In this document: positions 8,089-8,344 of the stretch, one piece after another | How the letters are laid out: every line of letters begins with the position of its first letter | Position numbering within the stretch: the stretch's first letter is position 1 | Origin: a virus | IMG/VR virus record: IMGVR_UViG_3300044508_000090 | DNA length: 15,658 nucleotides | Strand: one strand, 5' to 3' | The notes under the pieces: generated by a model | Database searches by the model: none | Told to the model about the DNA's origin: nothing | Seen by the model: only the letters and a program-made list of their open reading frames with translations | Translations under genes and position numbers: made by a program

Positions 8089-8344
8089 TAAAGTGTGGGC
8101 AGCAGAGGAGACAAGAAAATGGTCAAACGAAGATAGGGGACATAGGCCCCCTGGGGGAGGGGGCGGGGGAGAGGGACTCCCGGCGAAGCCGGGTGGGGAA
8201 GGGGGTAGTGTGTTTTTAGTTCCTAAAAACTGTGAACAGACTTCCCCAGGCCCCGTGGCCCCCGCGTTCGCCGGGTCTAGGCTGCCTCCCCCTCCCTTGT
8301 TTTTGGCCCCCCGCCGCGTCATCGTGTTTCCGTCATCACTCCCT

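Follow-up and report, generated by a model that had tools for sequence, protein, structure and literature searches.

Two copies of a palindromic, promoter-flanked cassette in this contig differ by the reversal of a short AT-rich segment at the apex of the palindrome, while the sequence on either side of that segment runs in the same direction in both. We favor, with moderate confidence, an explanation in which the difference between the copies, A and B, goes back to one small inversion, old, fixed, and unprogrammed, at the tip of a non-coding element that forms a long hairpin. On this explanation, orientation is a stable property of each locus and not a switch.

The window analyzed is a complete 15,658-nt JGI metagenome contig. 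Cassette A (∼8058–8387) and cassette B (∼11900–12230) are 74%–84% identical, and their alignment shows them, on sequence grounds, to be paralogues. Each comprises two convergent copies of the same promoter type, facing each other across ∼250 nt of non-coding DNA, such that the order is promoter, G-rich arm, AT-rich apex, C-rich arm, and opposing promoter. In cassette A, the left promoter (8061–8088, plus strand; TTGACA-16-TATGAT with an extended −10 TG) points rightward into the cassette and the right promoter (8357–8384, minus strand; TTGACA-16-TACTAT) points leftward into it. Their counterparts in cassette B lie at 11903–11930 on the plus strand and at 12196–12224 on the minus strand (TTGACA-17-TATTAT). 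Since the left half of the plus strand is G-rich and the right half C-rich, either promoter transcribes a G-rich RNA first and then its complement.

The DNA between the promoters contains a palindrome of ∼170 nt, and both strands of each cassette are predicted to fold into one long imperfect hairpin. In cassette A, the left G-rich arm (8125–8201) contains local hairpins at 8135–8152 and 8179–8193 and ends in the outer bracket, TGGGGAAG (8194–8201). The right C-rich arm (8249–8320), which is G-rich on the minus strand, carries TTGTTTTT on the plus strand at 8298–8305. Nested inverted repeats join the two arms, pairing 8155–8166 with 8285–8296 and 8179–8193 with 8261–8275. The same symmetry is evident in an nhmmer profile of the cassette, which matches each cassette a second time on the opposite strand (E ∼1e-9 to 1e-10).

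A sequence-only reading of the window had described the central segment as inverted between otherwise collinear cassettes, and our measurements confirm this. The core of cassette A (8209–8240) matches the reverse complement of the core of cassette B (12049–12080) at 28 of 32 positions, as against 20 of 32 in the direct orientation, and none of 200,000 composition-preserving shuffles reached the flipped score. Over the longer strings on which that reading was based, the reverse complement of A agrees with B at 31 of 36 positions, reproducing the reported identity of ∼86%. The bounds of the A segment (8206–8242) are also right, but the B string is 36 nt long and therefore spans 12047–12082 rather than 12047–12081. 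Collinearity of the flanks holds on both sides: the left halves of the cassettes are 74% identical when compared directly and 53% when reversed, and the right halves are 74% and 59% identical, respectively. A flip of the whole cassette is ruled out, as the flanks align directly and the core alone is reversed. When both strands of both cassettes are aligned together, the apex of the A plus strand pairs with that of the B minus strand and the apex of the A minus strand with that of the B plus strand, with everything else aligning directly.

The core is itself a near-palindrome, centered between 8224 and 8225 in cassette A and between 12064 and 12065 in cassette B. The orientation signal is thus confined to the four mismatched pairs of a 46-nt quasi-palindrome (8215/8234, 8217/8232, 8222/8227, and 8223/8226), giving eight informative sites, and all four pairs are mirrored between A and B. 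These sites set the bounds of the inverted piece at a minimum of 20 nt (8215–8234) and a maximum of 46 nt (8202–8247). One inversion accounts for the differences at all eight sites, which would otherwise call for eight specific transitions at four pairs. Identity of the core between A and B, compared in the flipped orientation, is 87.5% and exceeds the 74% of the flanks. The excess may reflect constraint acting on the apex or an exchange of later date, neither of which is predicted by a purely neutral accident.

Nested short inverted repeats flank the apex: GTCTGT/ACAGAC, GGGGTAG/CTTCCCC, and TGGGGAAG/CTTCCCCA. They are 5–8 bp long and imperfect, and form part of the long palindrome stem. In cassette A, the inner left arm GGGGTAG (8202–8208) is symmetric to CTTCCCC (8241–8247) about the center of the core, and the right arm, CTTCCCCA, occupies 8241–8248. 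In cassette B, the outer bracket TGGGGAAG (12034–12041) is followed by the inner left arm GGAGAAG (12042–12048), and the right arm (12081–12088) is CCTCCCCA, a 7/8 match. Inside the inner arms, cassette A has the pair GTGTGT/ACAGAC and cassette B the pair GTCTGTC/GACAGAC. An 8-bp inverted repeat had been proposed to bracket the segment; short arms do bracket the flip and are conserved, but the perfect TGGGGAAG repeat of cassette A sits 7 nt beyond the symmetric arm and is a second, tandem left arm outside GGGGTAG. Similarly, the 8-bp stem with a 3-nt loop described within the segment is present in A (stem 8212–8219/8223–8230; loop TTC at 8220–8222), but only 5 bp of it form in the same register in B, where GAA occupies the plus strand. 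The inner left arm GGGGTAG was not exchanged between the A and B lineages.

This anatomy is that of a small inversion: mirrored differences between short inverted repeats, collinear flanks, a non-coding stem-loop, and a length of 20–46 bp. During replication, or during recombination between the arms, a nascent strand would have switched template across the stem and back, copying the 20–46 bp between the arms in reverse orientation. This event would postdate the duplication of the cassette and fall in the lineage of one copy, either A or B, and the flip would then have been tolerated and later fixed. Tolerance would be expected, as neither strand loses the hairpin and the same promoter drives both strands. 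We infer the template-switch step from the anatomy of the site and from the literature; an identical trace would result if the arms had recombined or if a third copy in the opposite orientation had served as the donor in a conversion.

Hairpin-associated “minute” inversions in chloroplast non-coding DNA were reportedly described by Kelchner and Wendel in 1996. In plastomes, hairpin-associated small inversions of 4–50 bp are pervasive (PMC12371153). When a polymerase switches template between two short inverted repeats, the spacer is left reversed, and such events include flips of GAA to TTC and back (PMC8604942); bacterial rRNA hairpins undergo loop inversions (PMC8794818). Published template-switch spacer inversions are mostly 2–8 nt long with perfect arms of at least 9 bp (PMC8604942; PMC8794818; PMC5453318). 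At a length of at least 20 nt, the phage piece is at the large end for an inversion of this kind, yet it is within the chloroplast range.

As in the chloroplast cases, a piece of non-coding DNA within the 4–50 bp range is inverted between hairpin-stem repeats, with collinear flanks and no sign of enzymatic programming. The setting differs, in that the genome is that of a phage, the copies compared are paralogues rather than species, and the piece is the apex of a palindrome of ∼170 nt transcribed from both sides. The resemblance to template-switch inversions of spacers and loops is that a reverse complement between arms explains a multi-nucleotide difference, that GAA and TTC are interchanged, and that the hairpin is kept. 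In contrast to the reported spacer inversions, at least 20 nt are flipped and the arms are nested and imperfect (5–8 bp).

Both orientations are reproduced in assemblies made independently of the JGI contig. The source sample is also represented by three Logan contigs from SRR35899498, corresponding to window positions 5924–8192 (L072), 8163–9093 (L073), and 10910–12751 (L104). L073 contains the A core at 100% identity. L104 contains the whole of cassette B and differs from the JGI contig at one position, a G/T difference at 11118 within a coding region and outside the cassette, which indicates either strain-level variation or different read sets behind the two assemblies. L073 and L104 span the flipped cores of A and B, respectively, without a break in the assembly graph. 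The inversion is not an assembly artefact. L072 and L073 meet at a graph branch in the left arm of cassette A, 10–17 nt outside the flipped piece.

Relatives of locus B were collected through the genes beside it. The 90%-identity cluster of the adjacent 61-aa gene led to contig L106 (SRR12487037), and three more contigs were reached through the cluster of the 119-aa gene: L107 (JGI 3300056619), L108 (JGI 3300056594), and L109 (SRR33367601). The orthologous cassettes on the first three of these, B1 (L106), B2 (L107), and B3 (L108), are 94.6%, 92.4%, and 93.3% identical to cassette B. The sequence-only reading had suggested comparing orientation across related genomes. All four cassettes of this set (B, B1, B2, and B3, from four samples and 5%–8% diverged) have the B orientation. 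At locus A, represented by one sample, the JGI and Logan assemblies agree on the A orientation. The cassette is kept in at least five metagenome samples.

The cores of B2 and B3 are identical to that of B. In B1, six substitutions cluster within ∼14 nt at the apex (L106 889–916), the cassette being otherwise ∼95% identical. On the minus strand, they convert TTTAG-TTC-CTAAA into TTTTG-TTTT-CAAAA, such that the 3-nt loop becomes one of 4 nt while the helix persists; on this evidence, the apex would be either a hot spot of mutation or the site of a conversion tract. The inner left arm of B1, B2, and B3 is GGGGTAG, as in cassette A, so the GGAGAAG of cassette B is derived.

Further copies were sought in several ways. 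For locus A, searches by cluster and among cluster representatives yielded P0135 alone, for which no contig is recorded. Exact-pattern scans of IMG/VR with the core and with a conserved 15-mer returned only chance matches in unrelated AT-rich genes. Among GenBank phages, neither blastn with cassette A nor tblastn with the two genes flanking it gave a match, and an nhmmer search with the cassette profile over 853 kb of fetched loci revealed no further copies.

The apex was also considered at the RNA level. The 61-nt apex of cassette A is predicted to fold more stably on the plus strand (−29.1 kcal/mol) than on the minus strand (−23.6 kcal/mol), and this order is reversed at locus B: −40.0 kcal/mol on the minus strand and −27.6 kcal/mol on the plus strand for B, −38.4 and −31.4 kcal/mol for B2, and −34.0 and −29.3 kcal/mol for B1. 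The advantage of 5–12 kcal/mol on A plus and on B, B1, and B2 minus arises because two stem mismatches are G·U on those strands and A·C on the others. These predictions are compatible with an alternative raised in the sequence-only reading, that selection may act on an RNA hairpin read from either convergent transcript. However, the strand asymmetry follows automatically from a neutral inversion, and it is thus neither proof of selection nor independent evidence for it.

A stronger form of this idea is that the inversion was fixed by selection, because it transferred a fully paired, G·U-stabilized hairpin at the apex between the two convergent transcripts, so that the functional RNA would come from the left promoter in cassette A and from the right promoter in cassette B. 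Besides the predicted folds, the derived arm of cassette B points this way, since one of the two changes from GGGGTAG to GGAGAAG repairs a mismatch and the other gives a G·U pair on the minus strand only, leaving an A·C mismatch on the plus strand. The higher identity of the flipped core relative to the flanks agrees with it, as do the clustered B1 changes that preserve the helix; the last two observations suggest that the apex is structurally constrained. Nevertheless, we regard adaptive reassignment of the hairpin as unlikely. The asymmetry would accompany any inversion and concerns just two wobble pairs in the stem, the two RNAs would carry the same hairpin within non-homologous arms, and folds of the whole cassette favor the plus strand in both A and B.

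Less likely again is gene conversion, in which a third cassette of opposite orientation would have paired with one of the present copies through the quasi-palindromic arms and overwritten the apex only. Such pairing is conceivable, as each cassette aligns to itself in reverse, and a later exchange would fit a core identity of 87.5% beside flanks at 74%; the cluster of changes in B1 could likewise be a conversion tract. There is also a possible trace of another copy in the Logan assembly, in that L072 and L073 overlap by exactly k − 1 = 30 nt (8163–8192). This marks a branch of the de Bruijn graph inside cassette A and suggests that another sequence in the sample shares the 30-mer. However, the branch point (8162/8193) does not coincide with the boundaries of the inversion and may be a sequencing artefact of the G run or a strain variant, and neither the window nor the 853 kb of fetched loci contains a third copy.

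It is very doubtful that the apex serves as a strand selector, in which occasional hairpin-mediated flips, independent of any recombinase, choose the transcript that carries the fully paired G·U hairpin, the two loci having become locked in opposite states. Were this so, the stability of each RNA, its processing, or its capacity to prime would depend on the flip, and the cassette would represent a previously undescribed phage element in which two identical early promoters run head-on into a G/C-skewed palindrome.

The layout had originally been taken for a small invertible DNA switch. In such a system, the apex would be turned over between the TGGGGAAG and CTTCCCCA repeats by a site-specific recombinase, toggling the strand that carries a signal. 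Two features recommend this: the segment is situated between promoters, and cassette A and all four B orthologues have kept the inverted repeats around it. The sequence-only reading had held that a switch would be refuted if all other copies shared one orientation, with no read-level heterogeneity, and the flanking repeats were not conserved; the recovered orthologous B copies do share one orientation, but the repeats are conserved. Known invertible switches are, however, much larger. The fimS element is 314 bp long, the hin segment ∼1 kb, and the promoter invertons of Bacteroides ∼150–700 bp, and the recombinase sites of such systems (Hin/Gin, FimB/E, and Bacteroides invertons) need two half-sites of ∼12–13 bp. 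We know of no serine or tyrosine invertase that acts on a segment of 20–46 bp with arms of 5–8 bp: a piece of this length is too short to loop for synapsis, and the arms cannot hold half-sites.

The content of the flipped piece argues in the same direction. It is the AT-rich tip of a hairpin, with no promoter or open reading frame (ORF), and the promoters lie ∼120 bp outside it. The left and right inner arms have stayed different in sequence in both lineages. Orientation is fixed in four samples at locus B, and the two assemblies agree at locus A at the consensus level. The invertase that the sequence-only reading had proposed to look for is not encoded in the window: Pfam and PHROGs searches of genuine-looking ORFs of at least 60 aa across the 15.7 kb found no resolvase, invertase, or integrase. 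This last observation carries little weight, as the genome is probably much larger than the contig. Taken with the small size of the piece and the single orientation found at each locus, these data make a programmed switch highly improbable.

Comparison with fimS/FimBE, with hin/gin/cin, and with the promoter invertons of Bacteroides makes the distinction clear. The likeness is an inverted segment between inverted repeats near promoters. In contrast, the phage apex piece is smaller by a factor of ∼10–50, known segments being one to two orders of magnitude longer, and it has no promoter or coding sequence, no visible recombinase, and no heterogeneity of orientation across samples.

That no inversion took place at all is scarcely credible: although all eight informative differences are transitions, tolerable in a hairpin under strand-specific selection, a perfect ancestral palindrome whose copies gained mismatches on opposite arms would need eight independent substitutions at exactly the same four pairs where one inversion suffices, and an assembly artefact is at odds with repeat arms that are shorter than any assembler k-mer, so that the whole region is read-spanned, and with consistent sequences from two assemblers and five samples.

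A hairpin-apex inversion is a modest result, but it is clean and well bounded and lies in a phage genome, whereas the best-documented examples come from plastomes, yeast genes, and rRNA. It also carries a caution. Inverted repeats around an inverted segment near promoters mimic an inverton, and predictors of invertons that work from sequence only would report one here. Of greater interest is the cassette, a duplicated palindrome of ∼250 nt with no Rfam match and no homologue detected elsewhere.

Sense and antisense RNA units with convergent promoters are known in phages, P22 ant/sar being an example. The cassettes resemble it in that a short non-coding stretch lies between opposed promoters, from which complementary RNAs are possible. 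In contrast to ant/sar, both cassette promoters are of the standard early type of this phage, no regulated ORF lies between them, and the intervening DNA is a G/C-skewed long palindrome that is present twice. We considered several roles for the cassette, the candidates being a structured or complementary RNA pair, a bidirectional terminator or insulator where convergent transcription meets, and an R-loop-prone element, the last because the non-template strand is G-rich behind both promoters. Readings of the cassette as a replication origin or as a CRISPR-repeat mimic were also considered.

No family of Rfam 15 matches the window at the gathering threshold. In E-value mode, there are only sub-threshold matches resembling miRNA precursors, which indicate a generic long hairpin. 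Terminator-like features are found in cassette A on both strands, where the whole long hairpin precedes TTGTTTTT on the plus strand and a hairpin at 8152–8135 precedes ATCTTCGTTT on the minus strand; the U tracts are weaker in cassette B than in A. No canonical terminator is located at the apex. A protein-coding cassette was rejected, as the longest ORFs of A are interrupted in B and the two copies differ in frame. The only frames to recur are 5-codon mini-ORFs with strong ribosome-binding sites, placed immediately downstream of the cassette promoters at 8122–8139 (plus), 8314–8331 (minus), and 12156–12173 (minus), and also on L107 and L108. Those behind the right promoter encode MTETR in A, MMKTR in B, and MRKTR in B2 and B3, all ending in ACN-CGA-TGA. 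Those behind the left promoter encode MVKRR in A and MVKRWEDG in B2 and B3, and the ATG is lost in B.

The cassette promoters belong to a larger set. The sigma-70-type pattern GATTGACA-N4-GATAYNC-N2-3-TGCTA has ten exact matches and one variant in the window, where none is expected. It consists of TTGACA, a 16–17-nt spacer, and an extended −10, followed by a leader with a strong Shine-Dalgarno sequence. Between ∼7.3 and 13.5 kb (promoters at 7976–13462), a near-identical strong promoter of this kind precedes each one or two small genes, and by its layout this is a phage early or “host-takeover” region. The one other contig found with this promoter type, IMGVR_UViG_3300037461_000242, has homologues of two genes of the window; neither a convergent promoter pair nor a cassette was present in the 26 kb of it that were walked. 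Otherwise, the promoter pattern turned up only as single chance matches when IMG/VR, JGI metagenome contigs, and GTDB genomes were scanned.

The window looks like a piece of a large uncultivated phage, and the full genome is probably much bigger than the 15.7 kb seen. Pfam and PHROGs assign to it an RNA ligase, a dNMP kinase, a phosphoesterase, a NUDIX hydrolase, and an ATPase resembling zeta toxin and polynucleotide kinase. It also encodes an 848-aa homologue of the major vault protein (MVP; 122–2668), recognized by MVP shoulder and repeat domains. This protein is ∼40% identical to proteins of the “uncultured phage” records LR756500-3 (462–735 kb), and it has relatives at 67%–68% identity on the phage-like metagenome contigs L100–L103 and at 40%–54% on L028–L031. 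None of these contigs with MVP-like relatives carries the promoter type or the cassette. MVP homologues at ∼55% identity are present in Myxococcota MAGs.

Three further motifs recur in the window. A sigma-54-type −24/−12 motif, TGGCAC-N5-YTGC, has 14 copies with at most one mismatch where 1.5 are expected (0 of 200 shuffles). The copies lie at 6375–7132, mostly on the minus strand, with a further one at 15469–15483. Eight are stacked on the minus strand of a ∼1-kb non-coding stretch (6375–6970), and two perfect copies face each other at 6956–6970 (minus) and 6989–7003 (plus). The motif may represent another class of promoter or a site at which a protein binds repeatedly along the DNA. Between 4350 and 6181, GGGTTCTTCGAA occurs 11 times as against 1.7 expected, including three tandem 14-nt units (5908–5947) just upstream of the dNMP-kinase gene, and looks like an iteron or operator. 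Finally, a perfect 22-nt palindrome, GTGAGGGCAAATTTGCCCTCAC, lies upstream of a small membrane-protein gene and has a near-identical copy 5 kb away (9420–9441 and 14424–14445), and could be an operator or a terminator.
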